A stretch of DNA of 64,000 nucleotides from NCBI GenBank assembly GCA_016710465.1, contig JADJVS010000001.1, positions 15,255-79,254 on the forward strand. Direction: 5' to 3'. The notes beneath the pieces were generated by a model, which worked only from the letters and a program-made list of their open reading frames with translations, was not told the DNA's origin and did no database searches. The position numbers were made by a program, and so were the translations under genes. Each line of letters starts with the position of its first letter. Positions within the stretch are counted from its first letter, which is position 1. Positions 9,785 through 39,673 of the stretch are shown piece by piece. Origin of the DNA: Sulfuritalea sp. (GTDB lineage Bacteria; Pseudomonadota; Gammaproteobacteria; Burkholderiales; Rhodocyclaceae).

Positions 9785-9813
9785 TTGACCGCTCGGTCGG
9801 CCTATGTTAGCGT
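9785..9813 (+). promoter_or_regulatory. Putative promoter with embedded palindromic operator (upstream of the ligase)
   Basis: TTGACC - 17 nt - TAGCGT. Palindrome GACCGCTCGGTC spans 9787-9798. 26 of 31 nt match the element at 12334-12364. Confidence 0.5.
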
Positions 9814-9881
9814 GCCCGCATTGCCATCCGGGAGGCCGCCTCCCGGCAAATACACCACCGTTGCGCAATGGAGGAGACGAG

Positions 9882-11219
9882 ATGGGAACTATCACATTCG
9901 AGCATCCCGAGATCGAAAGCCTGGACCGCGACGGCATCGTGGCGATCCAGCGGGCCAAGCTGAAGAAGCTGGCCGAGCGCCTGCAGGGCTCGCCGGACTG
10001 GACCAAGCGCTTCAAGGCCGCCGGCATGGAGCCGCGCGACCTCGGCGATTTCGACAATCTGCATGCCATGCCGACGCTGGAAAAGTCCGACCTGCGCGCG
10101 CTCTATCCCTACCCTATGCTGACGGTGGACATTTCGCAGGTGCGCCGCTTCGTCGCCACCTCGGGTACCACCGGCCTGCCGGTGATGTTCGGCCTCACCG
10201 AGCGCGACCTCAACCACCTGCTTCCGTTCCAGATGTCGCGCCTGCTGCGCGCCGCCGGCATCCTGCCCGGCGACAAGGTGTACCAGGGCTACGGCTACGG
10301 CCTGTGGATCGGCGGCCTGGCCATGGACATCGGGCTTGCCGCCTACGGCGCTGTGAATTTCCCGATCGGCCCGGGGCGCAGCGACCTGATGCTGAAATGG
10401 CTGGGGGACCACGAATTCACCGCCTGTTCGTTGTCGCCTTTGTGGCTGATGACCCTGATTAACCAGGCCAAGGCGCAGGGCATCGATCCGCGCACGGCCT
10501 GGAAGCTGCGCGTGGGCGTGTTCGGCGGGCAGTCCATTTCGGCCGCCTTCCGCGACCAGCTCGAAGCCGAGATGCCGCCGGGATTCCGTGCGCAGAACAT
10601 CTACGGCACCACCGAGGCCGGCGGGCCCATCGTCAGCATTTCCTGCCCCTATTCGCACGACACGGACGAGATGCACCTGATCAATGAGGACACCCTCATC
10701 ACCGAGATCGTCGATCCGATGACGCTGCGCCCGGTGGGCCCCGGCGAGGTCGGCGAAGTGGTGATCACCTCGCTCGACCGCGAGGGCAGCCCGGTGGTGC
10801 GCTGGCGTACCCGCGACCTGGTCAGGCTTTCGGACAAACCCTACGACTGCCCCTGCGGCCGCCACGGCATGCCCAAGATCGGCCGCATCATCGGCCGCAG
10901 CGACGACATGCTGAAGATTCGCGGCGTGATGGTCTTCCCCAGCCAGGTCGAGGACATCATCGCCGACACCGAGGGCACGGTGAAGGAGGCTTGGCACATC
11001 TACATCGACAGCGACCCGATGCTGATGGAGGAAATCACCGTCGCCGTCGAGAAGGCCGGGGCCAGCGGCCGCGCCGCGCAGGACATCGAGCACGACCTCG
11101 GCCACGCCATCCATTCCCGCCTCGGCGTGCGCGTCAAGGTGGAATGCCTGGCCGAAGGCTCGCTGCCGCGCTACGAAGCCAAGGCGGTGCGCGTGCACCG
11201 TCGCGACAAGAAGGACTGA
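9882..11219 (+). CDS. PaaK-like (phenylacetate-CoA ligase / F390 synthetase family) acyl-CoA ligase
   Basis: 'VATSGTTGLPVMF' AMP motif, 'YGTTEAGGP', C-terminal 'KAVRVHRRD'. GGAGGAGA RBS precedes the ATG at 9882. Confidence 0.8.
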   Translation: MGTITFEHPEIESLDRDGIVAIQRAKLKKLAERLQGSPDWTKRFKAAGMEPRDLGDFDNLHAMPTLEKSDLRALYPYPMLTVDISQVRRFVATSGTTGLPVMFGLTERDLNHLLPFQMSRLLRAAGILPGDKVYQGYGYGLWIGGLAMDIGLAAYGAVNFPIGPGRSDLMLKWLGDHEFTACSLSPLWLMTLINQAKAQGIDPRTAWKLRVGVFGGQSISAAFRDQLEAEMPPGFRAQNIYGTTEAGGPIVSISCPYSHDTDEMHLINEDTLITEIVDPMTLRPVGPGEVGEVVITSLDREGSPVVRWRTRDLVRLSDKPYDCPCGRHGMPKIGRIIGRSDDMLKIRGVMVFPSQVEDIIADTEGTVKEAWHIYIDSDPMLMEEITVAVEKAGASGRAAQDIEHDLGHAIHSRLGVRVKVECLAEGSLPRYEAKAVRVHRRDKKD

Positions 11220-11250
11220 ACCCGGGAGTCGGCGCTGGCGGGACGGCGAT

Positions 11251-12210
11251 TCAGGTCCCGACGCGCTCCAGCATCTTCTCCGCCAGCGCGTAGGGATCGG
11301 TTTCGCGCGCGATCACCGGGTCGAGCAGCTCGTCCAGCCACTGGCCGTCCTCGGCGCGCATGCGGCGGTCGAGCAGGTCGCGCAGGATTTCGCCGACGCG
11401 AAAGCGCATGCGCGTGCGGACGCGCGTGCGGGCGGCATCGGAACCGTCGGCGTGGTCGGCAAAACAGCGGTCGATGTGCGCGGCAAGGTCGGCCACGCCA
11501 TCCCCGGTCGTTGCCTGGGTCTTCACCACCGGCGGGCGCCATCCGCGCTCGCTGTGCAGCCGCTGGCCGAGCGCGATCATCTCGGCGAGGGCCTGCACCG
11601 TGCGATCGGCCTCCTTGTGGTCGGCCTTGTTCACCACGAAGATGTCGCCGATCTCGTTGATGCCGGCCTTGGCGGCCTGCACGTCATCACCGCCCATGGG
11701 CGTTTGCAGCAGCACCACGACGGCGGCATGGCGCATGATGTCGGTCTCGTTCTGGCCGACGCCGACGGTCTCGATCAGCACCACGTCCCAGGGCATGGCG
11801 TCGAGCACGGTGAGCGCATCGCCCGTGGCGCGCGAGAGGCCGCCGAGGTGGCCGCGCGAGGCCATGCTGCGGATGAAGACACCGGCGTCGCCGCTGTGGT
11901 CCATCATGCGCAGGCGGTCGCCGAGCACGGCGCCGCCCGAGAAGGGGCTGGACGGATCGACCGCCAGCACCGCCACCTTGAGGCCGGCCTGGCGCCAGTG
12001 GCGCACCATGGCGTTGATCAGCGTGCTCTTGCCGGCGCCCGGCGGGCCGGTGACGCCGACCACCTTGCTGCGCCCGCCCCGGCGGTAGAGCGCCTGCAGC
12101 AGCGGCACCACGCCGGGCTCATCGCGCTCGACGCGGGTGATCAGGCGCGCCGCGCTGCGGATATGGCCGGCAGCCACGGCGTCGAGCAAACTGCGATCGG
12201 CTTCCTCCAC
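11251..12210 (-). CDS. meaB: MeaB/ArgK-type G-protein chaperone for B12-dependent mutases
   Basis: Walker A 'GPPGAGKST', 'ETVGVGQ', 'NKAD'. Confidence 0.88.
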   Translation of the reverse strand: MEEADRSLLDAVAAGHIRSAARLITRVERDEPGVVPLLQALYRRGGRSKVVGVTGPPGAGKSTLINAMVRHWRQAGLKVAVLAVDPSSPFSGGAVLGDRLRMMDHSGDAGVFIRSMASRGHLGGLSRATGDALTVLDAMPWDVVLIETVGVGQNETDIMRHAAVVVLLQTPMGGDDVQAAKAGINEIGDIFVVNKADHKEADRTVQALAEMIALGQRLHSERGWRPPVVKTQATTGDGVADLAAHIDRCFADHADGSDAARTRVRTRMRFRVGEILRDLLDRRMRAEDGQWLDELLDPVIARETDPYALAEKMLERVGT

Positions 12211-12334
12211 GTCCTTCTCCTTGCAAGCTGGTTAATTCGTCCTTTGGGTCGAATAATAACATTGGTCAAACCTAGGCGCTTTTAGTTCGCTACACGCTTC
12301 TGCTAAACCAATCCAGTAGCCGCCGCGTTAAACG

Positions 12335-12363
12335 TTGACCGGTCGGTCGGTTTTTGTTAGGAT
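12335..12363 (+). promoter_or_regulatory. Putative promoter with embedded palindromic operator (upstream of the mutase)
   Basis: TTGACC - 17 nt - TAGGAT. Palindrome GACCGGTCGGTC spans 12337-12348. Near-duplicate of 9785-9813. Confidence 0.55.
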
Positions 12364-12411
12364 GGCATCCGCCTGCGGCCCCCAGCGCCGCCAGCATGCA
12401 CAGGAGACGCA

Positions 12412-14031
12412 ATGAAGCGCGAGACGGATTACGGTTACGCCATCAAGCCGGTCTACACGCCTGCCGACGTGGCAGGCCTGGACTACGAGAAGGACCTTGG
12501 CCACCCCGGCAGCTTTCCCTACACCCGCGGCTACCACGAGAGCGGCTACCGCACGCGGATGTGGACCCAGCGCATGACGGCGGGCCTCGGCAGTTCGAAG
12601 CAGGCCAACGGCGTGCTCAAGAAATATCGCGAGATGGGGCAGCGCGGTGGCATGTGCGTGATCAGCGACCGCGTTTTCTCGCACTGCATCGACCCCGACC
12701 ACCCGCTGGGACGCAAGGAAGCCGGCGTCCTCGGCTGGCCCGGCTGCTCGCTGCTGGAGTTCGAGGAGCTGATGGACGGCATCCCGCTCACCGGGCAGTC
12801 GATCACCCTGCTCGGCTCATCGGCGCCGACGGTGATGCGCCTGGCCTACGTGGTGGCGCTGGCCCACAAGCGCGGCATCGATCCCAGCGAAATCCATGGC
12901 AGCGTCATGGAGTCGCCCTTCGAGAACTACTTCGGCCAGACCGACGTCCAGCCCTTCGACCTCAACCTCAAGCTCTGGCTCGACGCCTCGGAATACGTGG
13001 TGCGCAACAAGATCCGCATGCGCTCCAGCGTCATCAGCCAGCACTTCCAGGAGTCCGGCGGCAACAACGCGCAAGCCGTTGCCGTGGTGCTGTCGATGTA
13101 CAAGGAGCTGTGCGGCAAGCTGGTGCGCGAGCGCGGCCTGGACTTCGACGATGCCGCGCTGGTGCCCTACGAGCTGGTCAGCATCGGCACCCGCTTTTTC
13201 GAAGAGATCGCCAAAGTACGCGCCCTGCGCCGCATGTGGGCGCGCATCGCCAGGGACGAGTTCAAGGCGAAGACCGAGAAGGCCTGCCAGATGCTGATCG
13301 CGGTGCACACCTCGGGCCGCACCATGACCTACCAGCAGCCGCTCAACAACATCGCCCGCTGCGCCATCCAGTCGCTGGCCGGCGCCATGGTCGGCTGCAC
13401 GGCCATGGACAACGCCACCATGGACAACGCCTACGCCGAGCCCTCCGCGCTGGCGGCGCGCATGTCGCTCAACACCCAGCACATCGTGGCCCACGAGACC
13501 GGCGTCGCCGACGTGGTCGACCCGCTGGCCGGCTCCTACTTCGTCGAGGCCCTGACCAACGAGGTCGAGCAGGAGGCGACGAAGATCCTGAACAAGATCG
13601 ACGAGCTCGGCGGCCTCATCGCGGCGATCGACAAGGGCTACATCCAGGAGATGCTGCGCGACGAAGCCAACAAGAAGTTCATCGAGATGGACAAGAAGGA
13701 TCGCCTGATCGTCGGCGTGAACCACCTCGAAATCCCGCCCGAGGAGGATTTCGAGATCCCGATCCAGAAGCTGCACCCCGGCGATTCGGAAGCCATCGCC
13801 GAGCGCATGGCAAAGTGGAAACCGACCCGCGACCAGGACCTGCTCAAGGCCAGGATCCAGCAGCTTTACACCGATGCGCAGAAAGGCGACCGCTTCAACC
13901 TGATGCCGTCCATCGTCGAGGCGGTGGAAGCCTATGCCACCTCGGGCGAGGTGATCGGCACCATCCGCAAGGCACGCGGCTTGAACTACGACCCGTTCAA
14001 CGTCATCGAGTGCCCGTTCGCGCTGCACTGA
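12412..14031 (+). CDS. Coenzyme B12-dependent acyl-CoA mutase, large (substrate-binding) subunit, atypical
   Basis: Methylmalonyl-CoA mutase family TIM-barrel signatures: 'FPYTRG', 'WTQRMTAG', 'ISQHFQESGG', 'NNIARCAIQSLAG', 'DPLAGSYFVEALT'. Confidence 0.85.
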   Translation: MKRETDYGYAIKPVYTPADVAGLDYEKDLGHPGSFPYTRGYHESGYRTRMWTQRMTAGLGSSKQANGVLKKYREMGQRGGMCVISDRVFSHCIDPDHPLGRKEAGVLGWPGCSLLEFEELMDGIPLTGQSITLLGSSAPTVMRLAYVVALAHKRGIDPSEIHGSVMESPFENYFGQTDVQPFDLNLKLWLDASEYVVRNKIRMRSSVISQHFQESGGNNAQAVAVVLSMYKELCGKLVRERGLDFDDAALVPYELVSIGTRFFEEIAKVRALRRMWARIARDEFKAKTEKACQMLIAVHTSGRTMTYQQPLNNIARCAIQSLAGAMVGCTAMDNATMDNAYAEPSALAARMSLNTQHIVAHETGVADVVDPLAGSYFVEALTNEVEQEATKILNKIDELGGLIAAIDKGYIQEMLRDEANKKFIEMDKKDRLIVGVNHLEIPPEEDFEIPIQKLHPGDSEAIAERMAKWKPTRDQDLLKARIQQLYTDAQKGDRFNLMPSIVEAVEAYATSGEVIGTIRKARGLNYDPFNVIECPFALH

Positions 14032-14042
14032 AGGAGAGAACC

Positions 14043-14504
14043 ATGCAAGCTGGAAACGGAATCAAGGTCATCGTCACGATGATCGGGCTCGACGGGCATA
14101 CCACGGGCGGCGAGGTGGTGGCCATGATCCTGCGCGACGCCGGCTTCGAGGTGGTCTACCTCGGCGTGAACCAGACGCCGCGGATGATCATCGATGCCGC
14201 AATCCAGGAGGACGTCGATGTGATCGGAATCAGCTCGCATGCCTCGAACTACGGGCAGATCGAGGAACTGGTCGACCTGGCCAGGGCCAACGGGCTCGAC
14301 GACATGCTGATCGTGGTCGGCGGCAACATCCCGCGCGAGCCGGCACAGCACCTGCTGGCCAAAGGGGTGCACAAGATATTCCTGCCGGGCAGCAGCGGCG
14401 CGACGATCGTCGAGTACCTGTCCACCGAGGCGCGCGGCGCCCGAAAGTCGGCGCCGGCGACACGGCGATCCGGCGCCGGGAATGCGGATCAGGGGCGGAT
14501 GTAG
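14043..14504 (+). CDS. B12-binding small subunit of acyl-CoA mutase
   Basis: 'GLDGHTTGG' (DxHxxG), 'DVDVIGISS', 'VVGG'. The last ~24 codons run through a repeat/hairpin and overlap the convergent gene. Confidence 0.85.
   Translation: MQAGNGIKVIVTMIGLDGHTTGGEVVAMILRDAGFEVVYLGVNQTPRMIIDAAIQEDVDVIGISSHASNYGQIEELVDLARANGLDDMLIVVGGNIPREPAQHLLAKGVHKIFLPGSSGATIVEYLSTEARGARKSAPATRRSGAGNADQGRM
14443..14478. repeat. Short dispersed repeat / hairpin, copy 1
   Basis: GAAAGTCGGCGCCGGCGACACGGC is identical to 54504-54527, and 22 nt are identical to 34776-34797. CGGCGCCGG...CCGGCGCCG forms a 9-bp stem. Confidence 0.7.
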
Positions 14505-14920
14505 GCCCAGCCTTCGCGCTGCTTCTGCATCAGCTCGACGACGCCGGCCTTGACGTAGCCGACCTTGTCGATCATGTCCTCGCGCTTGATCTTCTGGTTG
14601 CTCATGGTGTTCTCGCAGGCGACCACCTTGACACCCGCCGCCATGGCATCGAGGACGCGGTTGGCGACGGTGGCGTCGGCCTTGAGCATGCCGATGCCGG
14701 GGCCATAGGCGACGATCTCGATTTCGGCATTGGTGACGCCGAGATCGGTCTGCACGTTCCTGGCGTTATTGAGCGCCAGATTCCACTTGGCGGGATCGGC
14801 GTCGCTGACCTGGAAGATGACGCGGGCCTTGCCCGGAGCATCGGCGGCCAGCGCCGGCAAGGGCGCGGCGAGGGCAAGCACGGCGACGAAAAGGCTGGCG
14901 CAGGCGGTGTGGCGAATCAT
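14489..14920 (-). CDS. Secreted DsrE/DsrF-like family protein (COG1416-type)
   Basis: Signal peptide '[14 protein letters not shown]'; 'IEIVAYGPGIGML', 'VVACENTM', C-terminal 'GWAYIRP'. Confidence 0.7.
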   Translation of the reverse strand: MIRHTACASLFVAVLALAAPLPALAADAPGKARVIFQVSDADPAKWNLALNNARNVQTDLGVTNAEIEIVAYGPGIGMLKADATVANRVLDAMAAGVKVVACENTMSNQKIKREDMIDKVGYVKAGVVELMQKQREGWAYIRP

Positions 14921-14966
14921 GGGATCTCCTCTGTGTTGTGGTCTGTCGGGGGCACTACAGCATCAT

Positions 14967-14992
14967 GACGCGTCGGGCGGCGGCTTTATTCC
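14967..14992 (-). promoter_or_regulatory. ECF-type promoter candidate for the DsrE-like gene
   Basis: Minus strand reads GGAATAAA - N14 - CGTC (17 nt between GGAAT and CGTC), 46 nt upstream of the ATG, with a GAGGAG RBS. Confidence 0.5.
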
Positions 14993-15017
14993 TTGTGCGC
15001 CGCCGCATCGACTCCCG

Positions 15018-15043
15018 GGAATAAACTTGCCTCATCCCGCGTC
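15018..15043 (+). promoter_or_regulatory. ECF-type promoter candidate for the sigma/anti-sigma operon
   Basis: GGAATAAA - N14 - CGTC with spacing identical to the divergent copy. Only 12 nt separate it from the ATG, so the leader would be very short. Confidence 0.45.
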
Positions 15044-15055
15044 CTACGCCTGTCC

Positions 15056-15601
15056 ATGGCCATCCTGTCCTTCCTCTTCCATAGCCGCCAATGGCGCGAC
15101 AGCCTCGAAGCGGCGCGCCCGGCGCTCTATCGCGTCGCCTACGCCTGGTGCCGCGACGCGGCGCTGGCCGATGACCTGGTGCAGGAGGCGACGACCAAGG
15201 CCCTGGAACGCGGTGACCAGTTGCGTGACCCAACCCGCTTCAAGGGCTGGCTGTTCGCCATTCTTTCACGCTGCTGGCACGACCACCTGCGCGCCCGCCA
15301 CCCGCACGAGGACATCGACGAGCTCGCCGACGAGTACCTGGCCGGCGGCAGCACGCCGCCCGAGGAAGCCGAGCGCCGCCAGACCATCGCGCGCGTGCGT
15401 GCCGCCGTAGCGCGGCTGCCGGTGGGCCAGCGTCAGGTGCTCACCCTGGTCGACCTCGAAGAGTTCGGCTATGCCGAGGTCGGCGACATCCTCGCCATAC
15501 CCATGGGCACGGTAATGAGTCGCCTGCACCGCGCCCGCCGCGCCCTGCGCGAGGACCTGCTGCGCGTCGAGTCCGCCGCGCCGCTGTGGAGGGTGAAATG
15601 A
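15056..15601 (+). CDS. ECF (sigma-70 family) RNA polymerase sigma factor
   Basis: Region 2 'DDLVQEATTKALER', region 4 'LPVGQRQVLTLVDLEEFGYAEVGDILAIPMGTVMSRLHRAR'. Confidence 0.85.
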   Translation: MAILSFLFHSRQWRDSLEAARPALYRVAYAWCRDAALADDLVQEATTKALERGDQLRDPTRFKGWLFAILSRCWHDHLRARHPHEDIDELADEYLAGGSTPPEEAERRQTIARVRAAVARLPVGQRQVLTLVDLEEFGYAEVGDILAIPMGTVMSRLHRARRALREDLLRVESAAPLWRVK

Positions 15602-16275
15602 AGCACGAGATATCCGACGAGCAACTGAATGCCTTTGTCGATGACGAACTCGATGCCACAGACCGCAACCGGGTACTGAGGGCGATGGCCGTCGACGGGG
15701 ATCTGGCGCAACGCGCCTGCACCCTGCGCCTGGTCAAGGAACAGGTACGCCACGCCTACGCCGAGCCGTCGGCAGCGCCGTCGCGGCAACGACCGGCTCG
15801 CCCCTGGCGCGCGCTGGCCATGGCACTGATGCTGGCGGGGGCCGCCGTGGGCGGCTGGATCGCCCGCGACCAGGTCGGCACGGGAAGCGACATGCTCGCG
15901 CGCAAGGCTGACACGGGGCACGTAATCCTGCACCTGGCGGCCTGGGACGAGCGACGGGCGCGCATCGCCCTCGACGACGCCGAGGGGCTGCTGCGCACCG
16001 CGCGCGAGGCCGGGCAGCCGATCGACGTGGAACTGGTGGCCAATCGCGGCGGGCTTGACTTGCTGCGCACCGGGGTTTCACCCCATGCGGATCGCATCGC
16101 GCGGCTGCGCGCCGAGCATCCGAACTTCGCCTTGATCGCCTGCGGCCAGACCGTGGAACACCTGCGCGAAAAGGGCCTGGCGGTACACCTGCTGCCCGGC
16201 ACCCGCGTCGCCAGCTCGGCGCTGGAGCAGATCGTCACGCGCATGAGCCAGGGCTGGTCCTACGTACGCGTCTGA
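15598..16275 (+). CDS. Anti-sigma factor with single TM and periplasmic DsrE-like domain
   Basis: ATGA-coupled to the sigma gene. N-terminal 'LNAFVDDELD', TM 'LAMALMLAGAAVGGWIA'. C-terminal 'VELVANRGGLDLL...LIACGQTV...GWSYVRV' aligns with the neighbouring DsrE-like protein. Confidence 0.7.
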   Translation: MKHEISDEQLNAFVDDELDATDRNRVLRAMAVDGDLAQRACTLRLVKEQVRHAYAEPSAAPSRQRPARPWRALAMALMLAGAAVGGWIARDQVGTGSDMLARKADTGHVILHLAAWDERRARIALDDAEGLLRTAREAGQPIDVELVANRGGLDLLRTGVSPHADRIARLRAEHPNFALIACGQTVEHLREKGLAVHLLPGTRVASSALEQIVTRMSQGWSYVRV

Positions 16276-16319: not shown

Positions 16320-17636
16320 CTACAGCTTCAGTGCGATCAGTGCAATCGAGGGCACGAAGACGATCAGCGCAATGCGCACAATATCGGACATCAGAAAGGG
16401 AATGATGCCGATGAAGGTTTCCTTCATCGAGGTGTCCTTGGCCATGCTGCTGATGATGAAGACGTTAAGACCGACGGGCGGCGTAATCAGGCCGATTTCA
16501 ACCACCATCAGCGAAAGGATGCCAAACCAGATCGCCTTGCCCTCGGGATCGAGGCCCCAGAAGTCCATGCCCATGATGATGGGGAAGAAGATCGGAATCG
16601 TCAGCATGATCATCGACAGGCTGTCCATGATGCAGCCGAGGATCAGGTAGATGATGATGATCACCAGCAGTACCAGCAGGGGCGACAGGCCGAGCCCCAC
16701 CACCCACTTGGCGAGTTCCGCCGGCATCTGCGTCAGCGCCAGGAAGACGTTCATGATGTCGGCGCCGAGCAGGATCAGGAAGATCATGGCCGTGGCCTGT
16801 GAAGTGCCATAGACGCATTCGAGGAAGCCGCGCTTGGACAGGCCACCCGAGCGCCAGGCGACGAAGGCCGTCGCCAGGGTACCGATCGAGGCGGCCTCGG
16901 TCGGCGTGAAAAAGCCGCCATAGATGCCGCCGATCACGGCGATGAATATCAGCATCACCGGCCAGGTATCGGCGATCGCCTTCAGTTTTTCGGCGATGCT
17001 GGCCTTTTCGCCACGCGGCGCGGCATTGGGATCAAGGCGGGCGATGATGCCGATCACAATCATGTAACCGACCATGGCGATGATGCCGGGAATCACGGCG
17101 GCCATGAACAGCTTGGCGATGTTCTGTTCGGTGAGGATGGCGTAGATCACCAGTGGCACCGAAGGCGGGATCAGGATGCCCAGCGTGCCGCCGGCGGCGA
17201 TCGCCGCCGTGGCGAGGCGCCCGGAATACTTGTGGTTGCGCAACTCGGGCAGGGCCACCTGGCCCATGGTGGCGGCGGTCGCCAGCGAGGAGCCGCAGAT
17301 CGCGCCGAAGCCGGCGCAGGCACCGACCGCAGCCATCGCCAGACCGCCGCGCCAGTGGCCGATCAGCGTGGCGCCGGCACGGAACAGGGCCTTGGACAAG
17401 CCGCCATGGGTGGCGAACTGGCCCATCAACAGGAACAGCGGCACCACCGAGAGATCGTAGATCGAATAGCGCGCCCAGGCGGCTGTCTTCATGTAACTGA
17501 GCAGCGGTGCCGGGCCGGCCATCCAGATGTAGCCGACCATGCCGGCGATCATCATGGCCATCGCGATATGTACGCGCAAGGCCATCAGGCCCAGCATCAG
17601 GACGCCGGCGACGGCGCCGGTTTCAATTCCGGTCAT
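16320..17636 (-). CDS. dctM: TRAP transporter large permease (DctM family)
   Basis: 438-aa polytopic protein with typical DctM motifs; overlaps dctQ by 4 nt. Confidence 0.88.
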   Translation of the reverse strand: MTGIETGAVAGVLMLGLMALRVHIAMAMMIAGMVGYIWMAGPAPLLSYMKTAAWARYSIYDLSVVPLFLLMGQFATHGGLSKALFRAGATLIGHWRGGLAMAAVGACAGFGAICGSSLATAATMGQVALPELRNHKYSGRLATAAIAAGGTLGILIPPSVPLVIYAILTEQNIAKLFMAAVIPGIIAMVGYMIVIGIIARLDPNAAPRGEKASIAEKLKAIADTWPVMLIFIAVIGGIYGGFFTPTEAASIGTLATAFVAWRSGGLSKRGFLECVYGTSQATAMIFLILLGADIMNVFLALTQMPAELAKWVVGLGLSPLLVLLVIIIIYLILGCIMDSLSMIMLTIPIFFPIIMGMDFWGLDPEGKAIWFGILSLMVVEIGLITPPVGLNVFIISSMAKDTSMKETFIGIIPFLMSDIVRIALIVFVPSIALIALKL

Positions 17637-18157
17637 GCTTCGGCTCCGGTAATGTCGATCCAGGCTGTATAGAGGGCCGCGCAGCCAAGAAGGAAGAAGG
17701 ATGGCACCATCGGCAGGTAGCCGTACCAGGTGGGCAGGTTAAGCAGCATCGAGGCATCGCCACTGTCGCGCAGATCGAGCATGCCCAGGGTGATGCGCCA
17801 GGCGAAGACGAAGCCGGCGACGGACAAGGCCAGGCTGGCGACGATATCGCAGGCGCGATTGAATTTCTTCGGCGCGTGGACGGTGAAGAAGTCTACGATG
17901 ATGTGGCCGCGGATCATCTGGCAGAAAGGCAACGCCATGGTCACGGCAACCGCCGACATCATCTGCACCAACTCGTAGTCGCCGAGGATCGGCGTGCTGA
18001 ACAGGCTGCGGCCGACAATGCTCGTCAAGGACATCAGGGACATCAGGATCAGCGTGATACCCGAGCCGACCGCGAAGGCGCGACAAACCTTGTTCAGCAC
18101 CCGGCCCACCAATGCGGTCGGCTCGGCATCCTTGTCGACATAGAGGGCGTCAGCCAT
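17633..18157 (-). CDS. dctQ: TRAP transporter small permease (DctQ family)
   Basis: Four TM segments. Start taken at the internal ATG (MADALYVD). Confidence 0.75.
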   Translation of the reverse strand: MADALYVDKDAEPTALVGRVLNKVCRAFAVGSGITLILMSLMSLTSIVGRSLFSTPILGDYELVQMMSAVAVTMALPFCQMIRGHIIVDFFTVHAPKKFNRACDIVASLALSVAGFVFAWRITLGMLDLRDSGDASMLLNLPTWYGYLPMVPSFFLLGCAALYTAWIDITGAEA

Positions 18158-18200
18158 CTTTTTCTCCTTGCGTTCCGTCCGCGACGCAGGTCGGGGACGG

Positions 18201-18238
18201 CAAAAAAACGCCGGGGCCGGCAGTGCCGGCACCCGGCG
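18201..18238 (-). terminator. Intra-operon intrinsic terminator/attenuator between dctP and dctQ
   Basis: Minus strand reads CCGCCGGGTGCCGGCACTGCCGGCCCCGGCG followed by TTTTTTT. Confidence 0.6.
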
Positions 18239-18252
18239 GTGCGTCGTGCTGC

Positions 18253-19284
18253 TTACTTGGTGTGCTTCTTGATCAGGTCCTGAGCCGCCTTGAACAGCTT
18301 GGGACCGTCGTGGCCGGCCTTGGTCATGTTGGCCATCCACTCGTCATCGAGCGCTCCGCTGGCCTTCTTCCATTTTTCAAGTTCCGAAGCCGGGATAACG
18401 TTGATGGTCATGCCCGCAGCCTTGCTCTTCTCGCGGCCGGGGCCGTCGTCGGCTTCCTGCACACGCCCGGCCATGGCCGAGAACTCGATGCCGGAGTTGT
18501 TGTCGATCACTTTCTTCAGGTCAGCCGGCAGGGAGTCGTACTTGGCCTTGTTCATGGCGATGGTGAACACCGTGGTATAGAGCGCCGGGAACTTCGGGTC
18601 CGTTTCCGCACCGAACTTGGCGATTTCATTGACCTTGATGCTCGGCACCACCTGATAGGGAATCACCGCACCTTCGATGACGCCCTTGGACAGCGCCTCG
18701 GGCACGGCCGGCACCGGCATGCCGACCGGCGTGGCGCCCATCGAGGCCAGCATCTTGTTGGTCAGGCGGGTCGGGGCGCGGAACTTCATGCCCTTGAAGT
18801 CTTCCATGGTCTTCATCTGCTTCTTGGTGGTGAACAGGTAGCCAGGGCCATGAACGTGGACGGCGAGCACCTTGACGTCCTTGAATTCGTGCGCGGCGTA
18901 CTGCTGGGTGAATTCCCAGGCGGCGCGGCTGGTGGCTTCCGCCTTGGTCATGGTGAAGGGCAGCTCGAAGACTTCCGACATCGGGAAGCGGTTGGCCGAG
19001 TAGCCGAGCACGGTCCACACCACGTCGGCGACGCCATCCTTGGCCTGGTCGTAGAGCTGCGGCGGCGTGCCACCGAGCTGCATGGCCGGATAGATCTGGC
19101 ACTTGATGCGGTTGTTGGAATCCTTGCCCAGCTTGGCACACCACGGCTCGAAGACGCCGGTATGGATGAAGGTCTGGGCCGAAAGGAAGTGATGCACCTT
19201 GAGGGTGACCTCCTGAGCCTGAACCGCGAAGGCGGTGCCGGCGATCGATGCGGCAATCAGGGTTTTTGCAAACAGCTTTTTCAT
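18253..19284 (-). CDS. dctP: TRAP transporter periplasmic solute-binding protein (DctP family)
   Basis: Signal peptide 'AASIAGTAFAVQAQE'; DctP-family body. Confidence 0.88.
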   Translation of the reverse strand: MKKLFAKTLIAASIAGTAFAVQAQEVTLKVHHFLSAQTFIHTGVFEPWCAKLGKDSNNRIKCQIYPAMQLGGTPPQLYDQAKDGVADVVWTVLGYSANRFPMSEVFELPFTMTKAEATSRAAWEFTQQYAAHEFKDVKVLAVHVHGPGYLFTTKKQMKTMEDFKGMKFRAPTRLTNKMLASMGATPVGMPVPAVPEALSKGVIEGAVIPYQVVPSIKVNEIAKFGAETDPKFPALYTTVFTIAMNKAKYDSLPADLKKVIDNNSGIEFSAMAGRVQEADDGPGREKSKAAGMTINVIPASELEKWKKASGALDDEWMANMTKAGHDGPKLFKAAQDLIKKHTK

Positions 19285-19505
19285 CTACGTCTCCTCTTTG
19301 ATGGCGGCGTCGCCGCCTTATTGAAATGACCGAACTCGCCCTAAAACCAGTGATACAAAAATCAATACACCTTATAGCATATCGAGAATTAATTCGCTAC
19401 AAAACAATCAGATAGATTGGATAGTGCAGTATAGTGCCTGTTACGATTTGCGATTTGAGCAAAATACTACACTAACCGCTCGGTGAATTGTTTGATTTCC
19501 AGCAA

Positions 19506-20825
19506 CTATTTCGGCCGCCGGTCGATCACCCGACGGGCCTTGCCGACGAGCGTCCGCTCGACCTTGTCGGTCTCGACTACATGCACCGTCGACGACACCC
19601 CGACCAGCACCTTGATCCGGTGCTCGACCTCACCTCCGATCTCCTTGCGCTGCTGTTCGGTGATCCTGTCCGACAGATCGGCGCGCACTTCGACATAGAC
19701 GTCGAGTTTGTCCAGATGGCCATCGCGGGTGACCTGCAGTTGGTACTGGGCGCATAGCTTCGGATGCTTGAGCAGGATCTCCTCGATCTGCGTCGGAAAC
19801 ACGTTCACGCCGCGGATGATCAGCATGTCGTCGCTGCGCCCGGTGATCTTTTCCATCCGCCGCATGGTGCGCGCCGTGCCGGGCAGCAGGCGCGTCAGGT
19901 CGCGGGTGCGGTAGCGGATGATGGGCAGCGCTTCCTTGGACAGCGAGGTGAACACCAGTTCGCCCATTTCGCCGTCGTCCAGCACCTTGCCGGTTTCGGG
20001 GTGGATGATTTCGGGGTAGAAATGGTCCTCCCAGATGGTTGGGCCGTCCTTGGTTTCGGCGCACTCGCAGGCCACGCCCGGGCCCATGACTTCGGAAAGG
20101 CCGTAGATATCCACAGCGTCGATGTTGAGGCGTTCCTCGATCTCGCGGCGCATTTCGTTGGTCCAGGGCTCGGCGCCAAAGAGGCCGACACGCAGGCTGG
20201 TTTCGCGCGGATTGATGCCGAGCTTGATCATTTCGTCGGCGATGGTCAGCACATACGACGGCGTGCAGCAGATCATGGTCGGCTTGAAGTCCTGGATCAA
20301 CTGAATCTGCTTTTCGGTCTGGCCGCCGGACATCGGGATCACCGTCGCCCCCAGGGCTTCGCCGCCGTAATGGGCGCCGAGGCCGCCGGTGAACAGGCCG
20401 TAACCGTAGGAATTGAGGATCATGTCATCGGCGCTGCCGCCGGCGGCACGCATCGAGCGCGCCATCAACTGGGCCCACATCGCGATGTCGTTCTTCGTGT
20501 AGCCGACCACCGTCGGCTTGCCCGTGGTGCCCGACGAGGCGTGGATGCGCACCACGTCGCGCATTGGCGCCGCAAACATGCCAAAGGGATAAGTATCACG
20601 CAGGTCGGCCTTGGTGGTGAAGGGAAACTTCGCCAGGTCCGAGATCTGTTTCAGGTCATCCGGGTGCACCCCGGCGGCGTCGTATTTCTTGCGGTAATGC
20701 GGCACGTTGTCGTAAGCGTGCCTGATCGACCACTTCATGCGTTCGAGTTGCACCGACCGCAGCTCGTCCTTGCTCGCCTTCTCGATGGCTTCCAGGCCCT
20801 TGCCCGGCGAATTCTTTGCGCTCAC
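19506..20825 (-). CDS. paaK: Phenylacetate-CoA ligase
   Basis: 'IHASSGTTGKPTVVGYT', 'YGLSEVMGPGV', 'RSDDMLIIRGVNVFP'. Context is the pad-like operon. Confidence 0.88.
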   Translation of the reverse strand: MSAKNSPGKGLEAIEKASKDELRSVQLERMKWSIRHAYDNVPHYRKKYDAAGVHPDDLKQISDLAKFPFTTKADLRDTYPFGMFAAPMRDVVRIHASSGTTGKPTVVGYTKNDIAMWAQLMARSMRAAGGSADDMILNSYGYGLFTGGLGAHYGGEALGATVIPMSGGQTEKQIQLIQDFKPTMICCTPSYVLTIADEMIKLGINPRETSLRVGLFGAEPWTNEMRREIEERLNIDAVDIYGLSEVMGPGVACECAETKDGPTIWEDHFYPEIIHPETGKVLDDGEMGELVFTSLSKEALPIIRYRTRDLTRLLPGTARTMRRMEKITGRSDDMLIIRGVNVFPTQIEEILLKHPKLCAQYQLQVTRDGHLDKLDVYVEVRADLSDRITEQQRKEIGGEVEHRIKVLVGVSSTVHVVETDKVERTLVGKARRVIDRRPK

Positions 20826-39184: not shown

Positions 39185-39673
39185 ATGAACGATACCGACG
39201 CAGGCTTGAGTTTCGATATTCCCGGAATCCAGAAATGCCAGCAGAATCGCTATCCGCTGCTGTTCGTCGACCGCATCACCGATCTCATACCGGGAAAGCG
39301 GGCGCGCGGCATCAAAACCTTCACCTATAACGAGTGGTTTTTCCCGGCGCACTTCGCGGACGAGCCCACGGTTCCCGGATTCATCATGGTCGAATGCCTG
39401 GTGCAGACCTTCATCATGATCTTTCTGTCCAGGCCGGAATACCAGGGCATGAAGACCGCGTTCTCGAATATCAGCGACTTTCAGTTCAAGCGCAAGATCG
39501 TGCCCGGCGAGTCCCTCGATATCCTGGCGATTCTGGATTCCTTCAATCGCGGCGTGGCGAAGGGCCGCGCGACGGGTCACGTGGCGGGAGAACTGGCCTG
39601 CGCCGGCGAGTTCGTGATCGCGGTGCCTGACGTCCTGAAACAGTTCACACCACGCCCCCCCACCTCGTCCTGA
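39185..39673 (+). CDS. FabZ/FabA-like hotdog dehydratase
   Basis: 'NRYPLLFVDRITDL', 'FFPAHFADEPTVPGFIMVECLVQ' (catalytic His and Glu positions retained). Confidence 0.75.
   Translation: MNDTDAGLSFDIPGIQKCQQNRYPLLFVDRITDLIPGKRARGIKTFTYNEWFFPAHFADEPTVPGFIMVECLVQTFIMIFLSRPEYQGMKTAFSNISDFQFKRKIVPGESLDILAILDSFNRGVAKGRATGHVAGELACAGEFVIAVPDVLKQFTPRPPTSS

Follow-up and report, generated by a model that had tools for sequence, protein, structure and literature searches.

[quoted passage not shown] The question is raised by a locus in a stretch of 64,000 nucleotides of Sulfuritalea DNA, hereafter called the window, in which genes for an ECF sigma factor and its anti-sigma factor lie back-to-back with a gene for a secreted DsrE-like protein (Table 1). 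Comparison with related loci suggests that this is probably an ECF26-like sigma/anti-sigma module that switches on periplasmic sulfur-handling genes.

Table 1 Features of the locus, in window coordinates
Feature	Coordinates	Strand	Basis
Secreted 143-aa DsrE-like (COG1416/MTH1491-type) protein	14489..14920	−	Pfam DsrE, 1L1S profile match
Predicted ECF-type promoter, DsrE-like gene: −35 GGAATAAA 14992–14985, −10 CGTC 14970–14967	14967..14992	−	Motif conservation
Predicted autoregulatory ECF-type promoter, sigma/anti-sigma operon: −35 GGAATAAA 15018–15025, −10 CGTC 15040–15043	15018..15043	+	Motif conservation
ECF (group IV) sigma factor, 181 aa	15056..15601	+	Pfam/NCBIfam domains; ECF26-like
Anti-sigma factor, 225 aa, single-pass	15598..16275	+	
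Cytoplasmic anti-sigma domain, residues 1–55, three helices, motif SDEQLNAFVDDELD	15598..15762	+	Profile matches, model
Single TM helix, residues 69–93	15802..15876	+	AlphaFold helix
Periplasmic DsrE-like (COG1416/MTH1491-type) domain, residues 104–225	15907..16272	+	Profile, Foldseek, hhalign

The two plus-strand genes are very probably a sigma/anti-sigma pair and are co-translated: the stop codon of the first and the start codon of the second share the sequence ATGA at 15598–15601. The sigma factor matches Sigma70_r2 (E = 7e-13) and Sigma70_r4_2 (E = 1e-14) in Pfam and scores 86 bits against NCBIfam TIGR02937 (cut-off 42.9), and its domain content of sigma-2 and sigma-4 only, at a length within the range of about 180–200 aa, is that of the ECF (group IV) class, as are the coupled anti-sigma factor and a putative promoter for autoregulation whose −35 element is of the AAC/AAT type and whose −10 element is of the CGT type. 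Across 80 species loci the anti-sigma gene lies directly downstream of the sigma gene in every one. The sigma factor is 38.8 % identical (E = 1e-25) to RpoE6 of S. meliloti, which is classed as ECF26 (PMC6180224), and in its nearest relatives on plasmids the genes are arranged as for RpoE6, with a serine protease encoded divergently; together, this identity and this arrangement suggest that it is ECF26-like. A tblastn search with the anti-sigma factor gave no match at the rpoE6-ecfR6 locus.

In the AlphaFold model of the anti-sigma factor, the transmembrane helix is followed by a low-confidence linker and then by a beta-alpha-beta domain (residues 108–224) with pLDDT above 90. The profile of the anti-sigma family finds MTH1491 (PDB 1L1S) with hmmsearch at E = 1.1e-12, and Foldseek matches the model to the same structure with a TM score of 0.89, an rmsd of 1.8 Å and E = 1e-8, followed by ST0148, YchN, DsrE/F-like proteins and DsrEFH (1JX7, 3MC3 and 2HY5 are among the fold matches). 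Sequence homology, the DsrE-like alpha/beta fold and a conserved cysteine ending strand 3 place the domain in the COG1416/MTH1491 subfamily, bearing out the original prediction that the C-terminus of the anti-sigma factor is structurally homologous to DsrE-like proteins. Seven periplasmic residues are invariant in the anti-sigma family, H112, G152, R166, A181, C182, W220 and Y222, with C182 (codon 16141–16143, motif ACGQT) unchanged across 107 diverse homologues, and the conserved site of the subfamily, made up of the strand-3-end cysteine, the arginine, the glycine loop and the C-terminal GW-Y motif, is kept. None of the anti-sigma C-terminal domain families in Pfam or NCBIfam is matched, and a literature search found no publication describing an anti-sigma factor with a DsrE-like periplasmic domain, in agreement with the claim that none had been characterised.

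MTH1491 and ST0148 (PDB 2PD2) are COG1416 proteins from structural genomics that share fold and sequence homology with both DsrE-like domains of the window, as well as the conserved cysteine after strand 3 and a C-terminal GW-Y-(I/V)R motif, but they are free-standing, cytoplasmic and archaeal, whereas one of the window copies is secreted and the other is joined through a transmembrane helix to an anti-sigma domain. To our knowledge, COG1416/MTH1491 proteins have never been assigned a role, although structures have been available since 2002, and our literature search found no functional study of the subfamily. The general statement that DsrE-family proteins handle persulfide sulfur is well founded for DsrE and TusD, but not for COG1416. 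DsrEFH, TusBCD and YchN (PF02635) have the overall DsrE-like alpha/beta fold in common with the window domains at a remote 9–14 % identity, and Cys78 of TusD (GVALNIC78VAAALRRG) sits at the junction of strand 3 and helix 3, like the cysteine of the window domains. In TusD and DsrE this cysteine is a carrier of persulfide sulfur; the equivalence of Cys182 to it is topological only, drawn from the strand–Cys–helix order. DsrEFH and TusBCD are, moreover, cytoplasmic heterohexamers that hand sulfur to TusE or DsrC, with no signalling role and no membrane anchor. Membership of the DsrE/TusD sulfur relay was rejected for the window proteins, which are periplasmic, have only remote fold similarity to that group and gave no profile match to TusD when the window DsrE-like family was aligned with hhalign.

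The secreted neighbour begins with a typical signal peptide (residues 1–25, ending in LPALA/AD, with cleavage between ALA and AD) and its gene is preceded by the Shine–Dalgarno sequence GAGGAG at 14926–14931 on the minus strand. The mature protein has a single cysteine, C102 (codon 14615–14617), within the motif ACENT that is invariant in its family. It matches Pfam DsrE with 29.4 bits (cut-off 22.7), and its family profile aligns with 1L1S over the full length (E = 9.5e-26). Pairwise BLASTP between the secreted protein and the anti-sigma domain is weak (21 % identity, E = 3e-4); hhalign of the two families gives 98.3 % probability and E = 1.9e-14 over 114 aligned columns. In this alignment, all seven invariant residues of the anti-sigma domain fall on positions that are invariant, or nearly so, in the secreted family (H112/Q37, G152/G75, R166/R88, A181/A101, C182/C102, W220/W138 and Y222/Y140), and the C182/C102 column is also cysteine in MTH1491 and ST0148. 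The check proposed at the outset, on conservation of the putative active-site cysteine, thus finds it in both proteins. The description of the two as paralogues is borne out as to homology and applies in a broad sense only, since an identity of about 18–21 % points to an old divergence and not to a local duplication.

Between the two divergent genes lie twin promoter-like elements, and here too the earlier reading holds. The motif GGAATAAA-N14-CGTC occurs exactly twice in the 64 kb, where shuffled sequences lead one to expect 0, and both copies are inside the 135-bp intergenic region, one per strand. The spacer from GGAATA to CGTC is 16 nt in the minus-strand promoter; the plus-strand promoter is 12 nt from the sigma ATG, which would leave a very short leader. 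Among 81 loci from different species, 63 carry the motif on both strands, back-to-back, and another 9 have it on the plus strand alone, giving 72 with a plus-strand motif upstream of the sigma gene and 64 with a minus-strand motif, while 8 lack it. The consensus is TGGAATAAA-N14-CGTCTT on the minus strand, ATGGAATAAa-N14-CGTCTTA on the plus strand and (A)TGGAATAAA-N14-CGTCTT across 128 sites, which contains the −35 GGAATA and −10 (C)GT(C) of ECF26 promoters. Of 136 motif instances, 124 have a 16-nt spacer, and flanking bases beyond the search pattern are conserved as well. Outside these intergenic regions there are only 12 strict matches in about 620 kb, two of which precede a DsrE-like gene (locus L045) and soxY (locus L047); L045 is a co-oriented locus, in which the motif is nevertheless found ahead of the DsrE-like gene. 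In sequence and spacing, the plus-strand promoter of the window agrees with the rpoE4 promoter of S. meliloti, whose TSS has been mapped: ATGGAATAAG-N13-CGTCT, with 16 nt between GGAATA and CGTC (PMC6180224). Motif and spacing are identical in the TSS-mapped promoters of RpoE4 (Sinorhizobium) and SnSigE (Starkeya), two ECF26 sigma factors that are responsive to sulfite (PMC6180224, PMC6527743, PMC3511301). One of these studies reported no GGAAT/CGTC consensus in the sulfite-oxidase clusters of Betaproteobacteria that it examined (PMC6527743). From this conserved context, we infer that the sigma factor autoregulates and drives the divergent gene.

The anti-sigma family comprises 543 clusters at 50 % identity with a uniform architecture, found in 327 species genomes. 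Its hosts are mostly chemolithotrophic Beta- and Gammaproteobacteria, largely named sulfur oxidisers such as Sulfuritalea, Sulfuricella, Thiobacillus, Thiohalophilus and Thiogranum. The divergent or co-operonic genes in other genomes are a DsrE-like gene together with an anion-type porin, soxYZ(A), and genes for SoxB-like and SoxC/SorA-like proteins and a YeeE-type transporter; Pfam confirms SoxY, SoxZ, SoxA, Porin_O_P-like, Sulf_transp (YeeE), Mo-oxidoreductase and SoxB-like neighbours. At least one gene of these classes adjoins the pair in about 63 of 80 loci, which are phylogenetically related so that the counts are not independent events, and about 13 loci have no recognisable sulfur gene near the pair. 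SoxY is encoded within 4 kb in 16 of the 80, in at least three different arrangements, and at two loci (L027 and L028) soxYZ begins 6 nt past the anti-sigma stop codon. In the 64-kb window itself, no sox, porin or other sulfur genes were found. The sulfur link, first proposed from the DsrE-like domains, thus gains independent support from other genomes, and the presence of sulfur-oxidation genes beside the pair makes it a good candidate for controlling sulfur oxidation in bacteria.

The divergent partner is most often the secreted DsrE-like gene, which is adjacent in about 49 of 76 evaluable loci, and at five loci (L024, L034, L048, L062 and L085) two secreted paralogues stand in tandem. About one-third of the loci lack an adjacent secreted paralogue and keep the sigma gene, the anti-sigma gene and the promoter pair; the divergent gene is then soxY, a SoxC/SorA-like gene, yeeE or a SoxB-like gene. 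The sigma/anti-sigma pair is thus constant and the third gene frequent, and the idea of a self-contained three-gene circuit finds no support in that form. As the same promoter type appears to drive other sulfur genes elsewhere, the conserved core consists of sigma factor, anti-sigma factor and promoter, with a variable output module.

The closest precedent, which the original prediction missed, is found in ECF26 sigma factors whose targets are sulfite dehydrogenase genes and whose signal is sulfite. The pairs RpoE4–EcfR4 and RpoE1–EcfR1 of S. meliloti, and SigE of Starkeya novella, control sulfite oxidation (PMC3511301, PMC6527743, PMC6180224) and are induced by compounds that give rise to sulfite, thiosulfate and taurine among them (PMC3511301, PMC6527743, PMC6180224). 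They have in common with the window family an ECF sigma factor paired with a single-pass anti-sigma factor (N-terminal domain, transmembrane helix, periplasmic domain), a small local regulon (predicted here), a −35 GGAATA and −10 CGTC separated by 16 nt, and outputs that are periplasmic sulfur-oxidising proteins, sorT and sorAB in the known pairs. The predicted outputs of the window family differ from sorT in being DsrE-like/porin and soxYZ(A) modules. The hosts of the known pairs are Alphaproteobacteria, as opposed to the mostly chemolithotrophic Beta- and Gammaproteobacteria described above, and their anti-sigma periplasmic domain is COG5662/RsiW-like (PMC3511301, PMC6180224), a domain that the window anti-sigma factor lacks, having instead the DsrE-like COG1416 domain with its invariant cysteine.

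Most likely, the module switches periplasmic sulfur-oxidation genes in response to a substrate or an intermediate. In the absence of a signal, the anti-sigma factor would keep the sigma factor at the membrane. Reduced inorganic sulfur in the periplasm (thiosulfate, sulfane sulfur/polysulfide or sulfite) would bind or covalently modify Cys182 and so inactivate the anti-sigma factor, through a conformational change or regulated proteolysis, and the freed sigma factor would amplify its own operon and induce the sulfur-handling output genes. That Cys182 may directly sense sulfur species is our inference. A more specific version, which we put forward tentatively, is that the anti-sigma factor senses sulfur covalently: Cys182 would take up a sulfane or thiosulfonate group, and it would be this relay step, as opposed to reversible binding, that signals across the membrane, frees the ECF sigma factor and so turns on sulfur oxidation in the chemolithotrophic Beta- and Gammaproteobacteria. 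The group could come straight from the substrate or be passed on by a carrier, for example SoxYZ or the secreted paralogue.

A less probable arrangement gives the secreted protein the leading part. DsrE-fold proteins form homo- and hetero-oligomers of paralogous subunits, and the oligomer-forming DsrEFH (2HY5) and YchN (1JX7) are among the fold matches, so that the anti-sigma domain might hetero-oligomerise with the secreted paralogue, as in DsrE/DsrF/DsrH or TusB/TusC/TusD, and sense no small molecule itself; the secreted protein would then be the true ligand or sulfur carrier that hands sulfur to, or titrates, the anti-sigma factor, in a relay or feedback loop. The homology of the two domains, their common conserved site, the frequency of the secreted gene as divergent partner and its tandem copies are all consistent with this. 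It has to contend, however, with the third of the loci that retain sigma factor, anti-sigma factor and promoter pair beside no such gene, and with the size of the secreted family (at least 7967 homologous clusters), which is about 50 times that of the anti-sigma family and mostly occurs without the latter. Competition for, or relay of, a shared ligand, as originally suggested, is speculative and, at loci where the paralogue is missing, cannot be the obligatory local mechanism.

It is improbable that the DsrE-like domain is a passive module, serving oligomerisation or protease recognition in a response to general envelope or redox stress, with the sulfur neighbours a matter of lineage-specific synteny. 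Many anti-sigma factors are governed by proteolysis and not by ligand binding, the literature search turned up no function for COG1416 proteins, the window has no sulfur-oxidation genes, and members of the secreted family also occur in non-sulfur contexts, near LarA-like genes or as a tandem DsrE gene beside an FAD oxidoreductase, with no obvious sulfur link. Yet the putative active-site cysteine, arginine and glycine loop are invariant in the 107 anti-sigma homologues and match those of the free-standing family, which is unlike what would be expected of a mere scaffold, and the sulfur genes come in at least three arrangements, each behind or co-transcribed from the same promoter type, which favours recruitment to a regulon over inherited synteny.

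A sulfur-responsive switch of this kind would differ in type from the characterised regulators with the same presumed task of switching sox and other sulfur-oxidation genes by reduced sulfur, namely the alphaproteobacterial SoxR (of ArsR type) and sHdrR (PMC10451225), a regulator of CsoR type from Thermus (PMC10318464) and Acidithiobacillus two-component systems (PMC6335251). All of these are either repressors in the cytoplasm or systems built on histidine kinases; no ECF sigma/anti-sigma pair is among them, nor any DsrE-like periplasmic domain. The characterised regulators are cytoplasmic repressors of other lineages; for sulfur sensing and sox switching in chemolithotrophic Beta- and Gammaproteobacteria such as Thiobacillus, Sulfuricella, Sulfuritalea and Thiohalophilus, the family offers a concrete, widespread candidate, for which a cis-element and a regulon are predicted and one residue is proposed as the sensor. 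It would also provide a first functional handle on COG1416/MTH1491 proteins and, if the proposal is right, add a sulfur-relay fold to the sensor domains of anti-sigma factors; the sigma/promoter pair might be of use as a sulfur-compound biosensor or orthogonal switch.

The cytoplasmic N-terminus of the anti-sigma factor resembles RseA/MucA-type anti-sigma domains. Its 55 residues are strongly conserved, with the classic helix-1 motif LNAFVDGELD, and are modelled as helices 7–14, 20–32 and 34–55 with pLDDT around 90; the family profile reaches MucA (6IN7, E = 0.006) and the RseA N-domain (8Z6G, E = 0.026) in the PDB, and sub-threshold matches to zf-HC2 and RseA_N occur in 50 and 31 of the 107 members (best E = 7e-5 and 2e-4, respectively). 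That the 225-aa protein is instead a membrane-anchored DsrE-like enzyme or carrier, a merely co-transcribed regulon member and no anti-sigma factor, is hardly credible: although every N-terminal family match is below its curated threshold, these PDB and family matches, the conserved helix-1 motif, the translational coupling, the unfailing adjacency to the sigma gene and the ECF26 anti-sigma architecture of an approximately 55-aa helical domain, a transmembrane helix and a periplasmic domain (PMC6180224) all speak against it. Zinc-binding (ZAS) membership was ruled out, as sequence and alignment show no HxxxCxxC (H-x3-C-x2-C) motif in the cytoplasmic part, whose sole cysteine, C41, is partly conserved. 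The Arg-rich stretch PSRQRPARPWR that precedes the transmembrane helix marks the cytoplasmic side, and near the outer end of the helix, the alignments show an invariant G86-W87 pair.

The locus comprises an ECF sigma factor gene, a coupled anti-sigma gene and a divergent gene for a secreted DsrE-like protein of the COG1416/MTH1491 type, all three open reading frames lying exactly where the original prediction had placed them. The sigma factor matches Sigma70_r2 (E 7e-13) and Sigma70_r4_2 (E 1e-14) in Pfam and exceeds the cut-off of TIGR02937 in NCBIfam. The proposed coupling is evident from the anti-sigma ATG (15598-15600), which overlaps the TGA stop of the sigma gene (15599-15601). The secreted protein begins with a positive charge, a hydrophobic stretch and then a cleavage motif (ALA-AD), and passes the Pfam DsrE cut-off (29.4 bits versus 22.7). 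The unit sits amid unrelated metabolic genes (9804-14504 and 16320-20825), and no sox, dsr, porin or further DsrE-like gene occurs within the 64-kb window. One flank encodes an AMP-forming ligase, a MeaB-like GTPase and the large subunit of a methylmalonyl-CoA-mutase-like enzyme, whose B12-binding subunit is encoded separately; the other encodes a TRAP transporter (DctPQM) and a phenylacetate-CoA-ligase-like protein.

Genes of the sigma/anti-sigma/DsrE-like unit in the window
Feature	Position	Strand	Product
ECF sigma	15056-15601	+	181 aa, sigma-2 and sigma-4 domains only
Anti-sigma	15598-16275	+	225 aa
Secreted DsrE-like	14489-14920	-	143 aa

The anti-sigma factor belongs to a family of 543 clusters at 50 % identity (exhaustive profile search, E < 1e-30); the clusters listed are full-length proteins of the same architecture with 221-277 aa, the sole exception being a 333-aa sequence. 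Precomputed Pfam domains are absent from all 154 close homologues in a family search, although the automatic name 'DsrE/DsrF family protein' appears in a few JGI records. An exact protein look-up returned no record of the window protein, whose nearest relatives are Sulfuritalea-like (82-90 % identity), and the plasmid collection holds no full-length homologue. An AlphaFold model from 107 sequences (mean pLDDT 84) consists of three confident N-terminal helices (residues 7-55), a single transmembrane helix (69-93), a linker of low confidence and a beta-alpha-beta domain (108-224, pLDDT > 90). Because an Arg-rich stretch precedes the transmembrane helix and the N-terminal domain must meet the sigma factor, the C-terminal domain is predicted to be periplasmic. 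The N-terminus contains the classic helix-1 motif SDEQLNAFVDDELD, with sub-threshold matches to zf-HC2 in 50 of 107 family members and to RseA_N in 31, and with weak but consistent PDB matches to the N-domains of MucA (E 0.006) and RseA (E 0.026). It lacks an HxxxCxxC motif and is therefore not of the zinc type.

That the C-terminal domain is DsrE-like, of the COG1416/MTH1491 type, is clear. The anti-sigma family profile matches PDB entry 1L1S across the entire domain (E 1.1e-12), and the model superposes on this structure with a TM score of 0.89 and an rmsd of 1.8 Å, ahead of ST0148, YchN, a DsrE/F-like protein and DsrEFH; the secreted family matches the same entry by profile with E 1e-25. 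By sequence and fold, the domain falls in the COG1416 branch of the DsrE/DsrF superfamily, and the system is no relay complex of the DsrEFH/TusBCD type. The claimed homology between the sensor domain and its secreted neighbour was assessed by profile and structure because pairwise BLASTP (21 % identity, E 3e-4) is too weak alone, and profile-profile comparison bears it out (98.3 % probability, E 1.9e-14, 114 columns). Judged from their sequences, the two domains diverged long ago and are not products of a recent duplication. Each of the seven invariant residues of the periplasmic anti-sigma domain pairs with a residue that is invariant or nearly so in the secreted family (H112/Q37, G152/G75, R166/R88, A181/A101, C182/C102, W220/W138 and Y222/Y140, anti-sigma residue first). 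The putative DsrE cysteine position, whose conservation the original prediction had left to be checked, is retained in both families as C182 and C102. This is the only periplasmic cysteine in each protein, and in the model it ends strand 3, with helix 3 beginning directly after. Escherichia coli TusD has Cys78 (GVALNIC78VAAALRRG) in the same strand-Cys-helix position; since hhalign of the secreted-family profile against TusD gave no meaningful alignment, we infer this equivalence from topology and do not count it as a result.

The intergenic region between the divergent genes, 135 bp long, contains GGAATAAA-N14-CGTC once per strand, as claimed; these are the only two instances in 64 kb, and shuffles of the window give an expectation of zero. 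A scan of the locus found no sigma-70-type promoter or terminator. Of 81 loci, 63 carry the relaxed motif GGAA(T/C)-N15-18-CGT(C/T) on both strands upstream of the sigma gene, 9 have it only on the plus strand and 1 only on the minus strand, and 8 lack it. Beyond these intergenic regions, the strict form GGAATA-N14-17-CGTC has only 12 matches in ~620 kb, one of them before a co-oriented DsrE-like gene (L045) and another before soxY (L047; L-numbers denote loci fetched from other genomes). In 124 of 136 instances, 16 nt separate GGAATA from CGTC. A T preceding GGAAT, AA directly behind GGAATA and TT behind CGTC are conserved though not imposed by the search, yielding the consensus (A)TGGAATAAA-N14-CGTCTT(A). 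Because the sequence around the motif varies freely between loci, the promoter pair constitutes a phylogenetic footprint. A third exact GGAATA-N16-CGTC match in the window (39197-39222, minus strand; GGAATATCGAAACTCAAGCCTGCGTC) departs from the consensus in having no AAA behind GGAAT. It lies antisense in the first codons of a hot-dog dehydratase (FabZ-like) open reading frame (39185-39673, plus strand), and no gene follows it on the minus strand; we rejected it as a regulon member, and it probably arose by chance.

A scan with one genome per species located relatives in 327 genomes, from which 80 loci were fetched; all counts over loci, those of the promoter motif included, are of non-independent events. 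The sigma gene lies directly upstream of the anti-sigma gene in all 80. A secreted DsrE-like gene is adjacent and divergent in only ~49 of the 76 loci with enough flank. A gene for a Porin_O_P-like outer-membrane protein (Pfam) comes after the divergent DsrE-like gene in 27 loci. soxY occurs within 4 kb in 16 loci and in at least three arrangements: soxYZA is the immediate divergent neighbour of the sigma gene in L043, L051 and L060; soxYZ(A) follows the anti-sigma gene directly in L027, L028, L034, L045-L048 and L072; and in L006, L011, L020, L054 and L071 the position is further upstream, beyond another gene. Only 6 nt separate the anti-sigma stop from the soxYZ(A) start in L027 and L028, implying a single operon. 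Other divergent partners identified with Pfam are a YeeE-type sulfur transporter (L006), a SoxC/SorA-type molybdoenzyme (L011, Cupriavidus sp. BIS7; L054, Pandoraea terrae), a SoxB-like metallophosphatase/5'-nucleotidase (L076) and a more divergent DsrE-like protein (L020). At least one gene of these kinds stands beside the sigma pair in ~63 of 80 loci. Named sulfur oxidisers dominate among the hosts (Sulfuritalea, Sulfuricella, Sulfurimicrobium, Thiobacillus, Thiohalophilus, Thiogranum and Thiohalobacter), together with some Burkholderiales.

The window motif agrees with promoters that have been mapped by experiment for ECF26, the sigma group that includes RpoE4, RpoE1 and RpoE6 of Sinorhizobium meliloti and SnSigE of Starkeya novella. 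Published elements are '-35 GGAAT, -10 CGTC' for S. meliloti sorT and rpoE4 and S. novella sorA (PMC6527743), and the cross-species consensus is '-35 GGAATA / -10 GT', the rpoE4 promoter TCATGGAATAAGCGAGGCAGCTCGCTCGTCTCT likewise having a 16-nt spacer (PMC6180224). The window sigma factor is 38.8 % identical to RpoE6 from pSymA (E 1e-25), a match whose identity as rpoE6 was verified by the presence, where expected, of both published RpoE6-dependent promoters. In the plasmid collection, the closest relatives of the window sigma factor show the RpoE6-type gene order, in which a serine-protease gene is divergent; one of them directs a GGAATAAA…CGTT motif towards that gene. Promoters of the form GGAATA…CGTT point towards the divergent S8 serine-protease gene in two RpoE6-type loci, on an Aminobacter plasmid (L082, 3934-3958, minus strand) and on pSymA (L084, 8909-8935, minus strand). 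A divergent target gene beside a sigma/anti-sigma operon, with their promoters back to back, therefore appears to be a design general to the ECF26 clade, the output gene being exchanged. The window-type system shares its promoter, its operon logic, a predicted small local regulon and predicted outputs that are periplasmic sulfur-oxidising proteins with the sulfite-responsive RpoE4-EcfR4, RpoE1-EcfR1 and SnSigE systems, whereas most ECF26 anti-sigma factors are reported to carry a COG5662/RsiW-like periplasmic domain in place of the DsrE-like one. The literature searched describes no anti-sigma factor whose periplasmic domain is DsrE-like (an ECF subgroup description may list a DsrE-like neighbour) and no ECF sigma factor controlling soxYZ in these lineages, and it yielded no functional work on COG1416/MTH1491. 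The module occurs widely, and through it sulfur sensing by chemolithotrophs can be tested directly.

Architecture, homology, the retained site, the conserved promoter pair and the recurrent sulfur-oxidation neighbours are established here; together with the ECF26 precedent, they suggest that the sigma factor activates its own operon as well as the output module lying divergently or downstream. The periplasmic DsrE-like domain may sense a reduced inorganic sulfur species, for which Cys182, assisted by Arg166, is a plausible site, the candidate modifications being a persulfide, a thiosulfonate or a sulfonate adduct; sensing would then free the sigma factor through regulated proteolysis or a conformational change. 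An anion-type porin and the SoxYZ carrier among the outputs are in keeping with the uptake and processing of an anionic sulfur substrate. The original prediction envisaged a relay or competition between the anti-sigma domain and its secreted paralogue, which is possible, as DsrE-fold proteins can build hetero-oligomers of paralogues, but cannot be the general mechanism because one third of loci lack an adjacent paralogue. Evidence against the sulfur reading comes from the window, which has no other sulfur gene, and from the secreted family, which has at least 8000 clusters and mostly occurs without the sigma pair, in surroundings lacking an evident sulfur link. No sulfur genes are evident near such genes in L089-L094, whose products are 65-74 % identical to the window protein. 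Some of these genes adjoin a LarA-like (Lar_N) gene; others stand in tandem with a second DsrE-like gene next to an FAD-dependent oxidoreductase.

In the stretch 15040-15058, the -10 box of the sigma promoter ends 12 nt ahead of the sigma ATG. If transcription starts 6-10 nt beyond CGTC, as at mapped ECF26 promoters, the sigma mRNA would be almost leaderless and without a Shine-Dalgarno sequence. The short leader recurs in the close relatives L001 and L002; elsewhere the motif mostly lies ~45 nt further upstream. In ~10 gammaproteobacterial loci (L026, L029, L032, L036, L037, L041, L052, L065, L075, L080), convergent groES-groEL genes lie just downstream of the anti-sigma gene, and in Sulfurimicrobium (L087) genes for a Crp-family regulator and DsrC come next; both neighbourhoods probably reflect lineage synteny. 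L085, a relative at 69 % identity that shares the upstream mutase genes, has two extra genes after the DsrE-like gene (L085 3970-4879), encoding a second secreted COG1416-like paralogue of 167 aa (EQCSVA…GYAYIRP) and a membrane protein of 100 aa. Both are absent from the window, where the DsrE-like stop codon and the convergent B12-binding-domain gene overlap by 16 bp (14489-14504), which suggests that the window lost the two genes by deletion.
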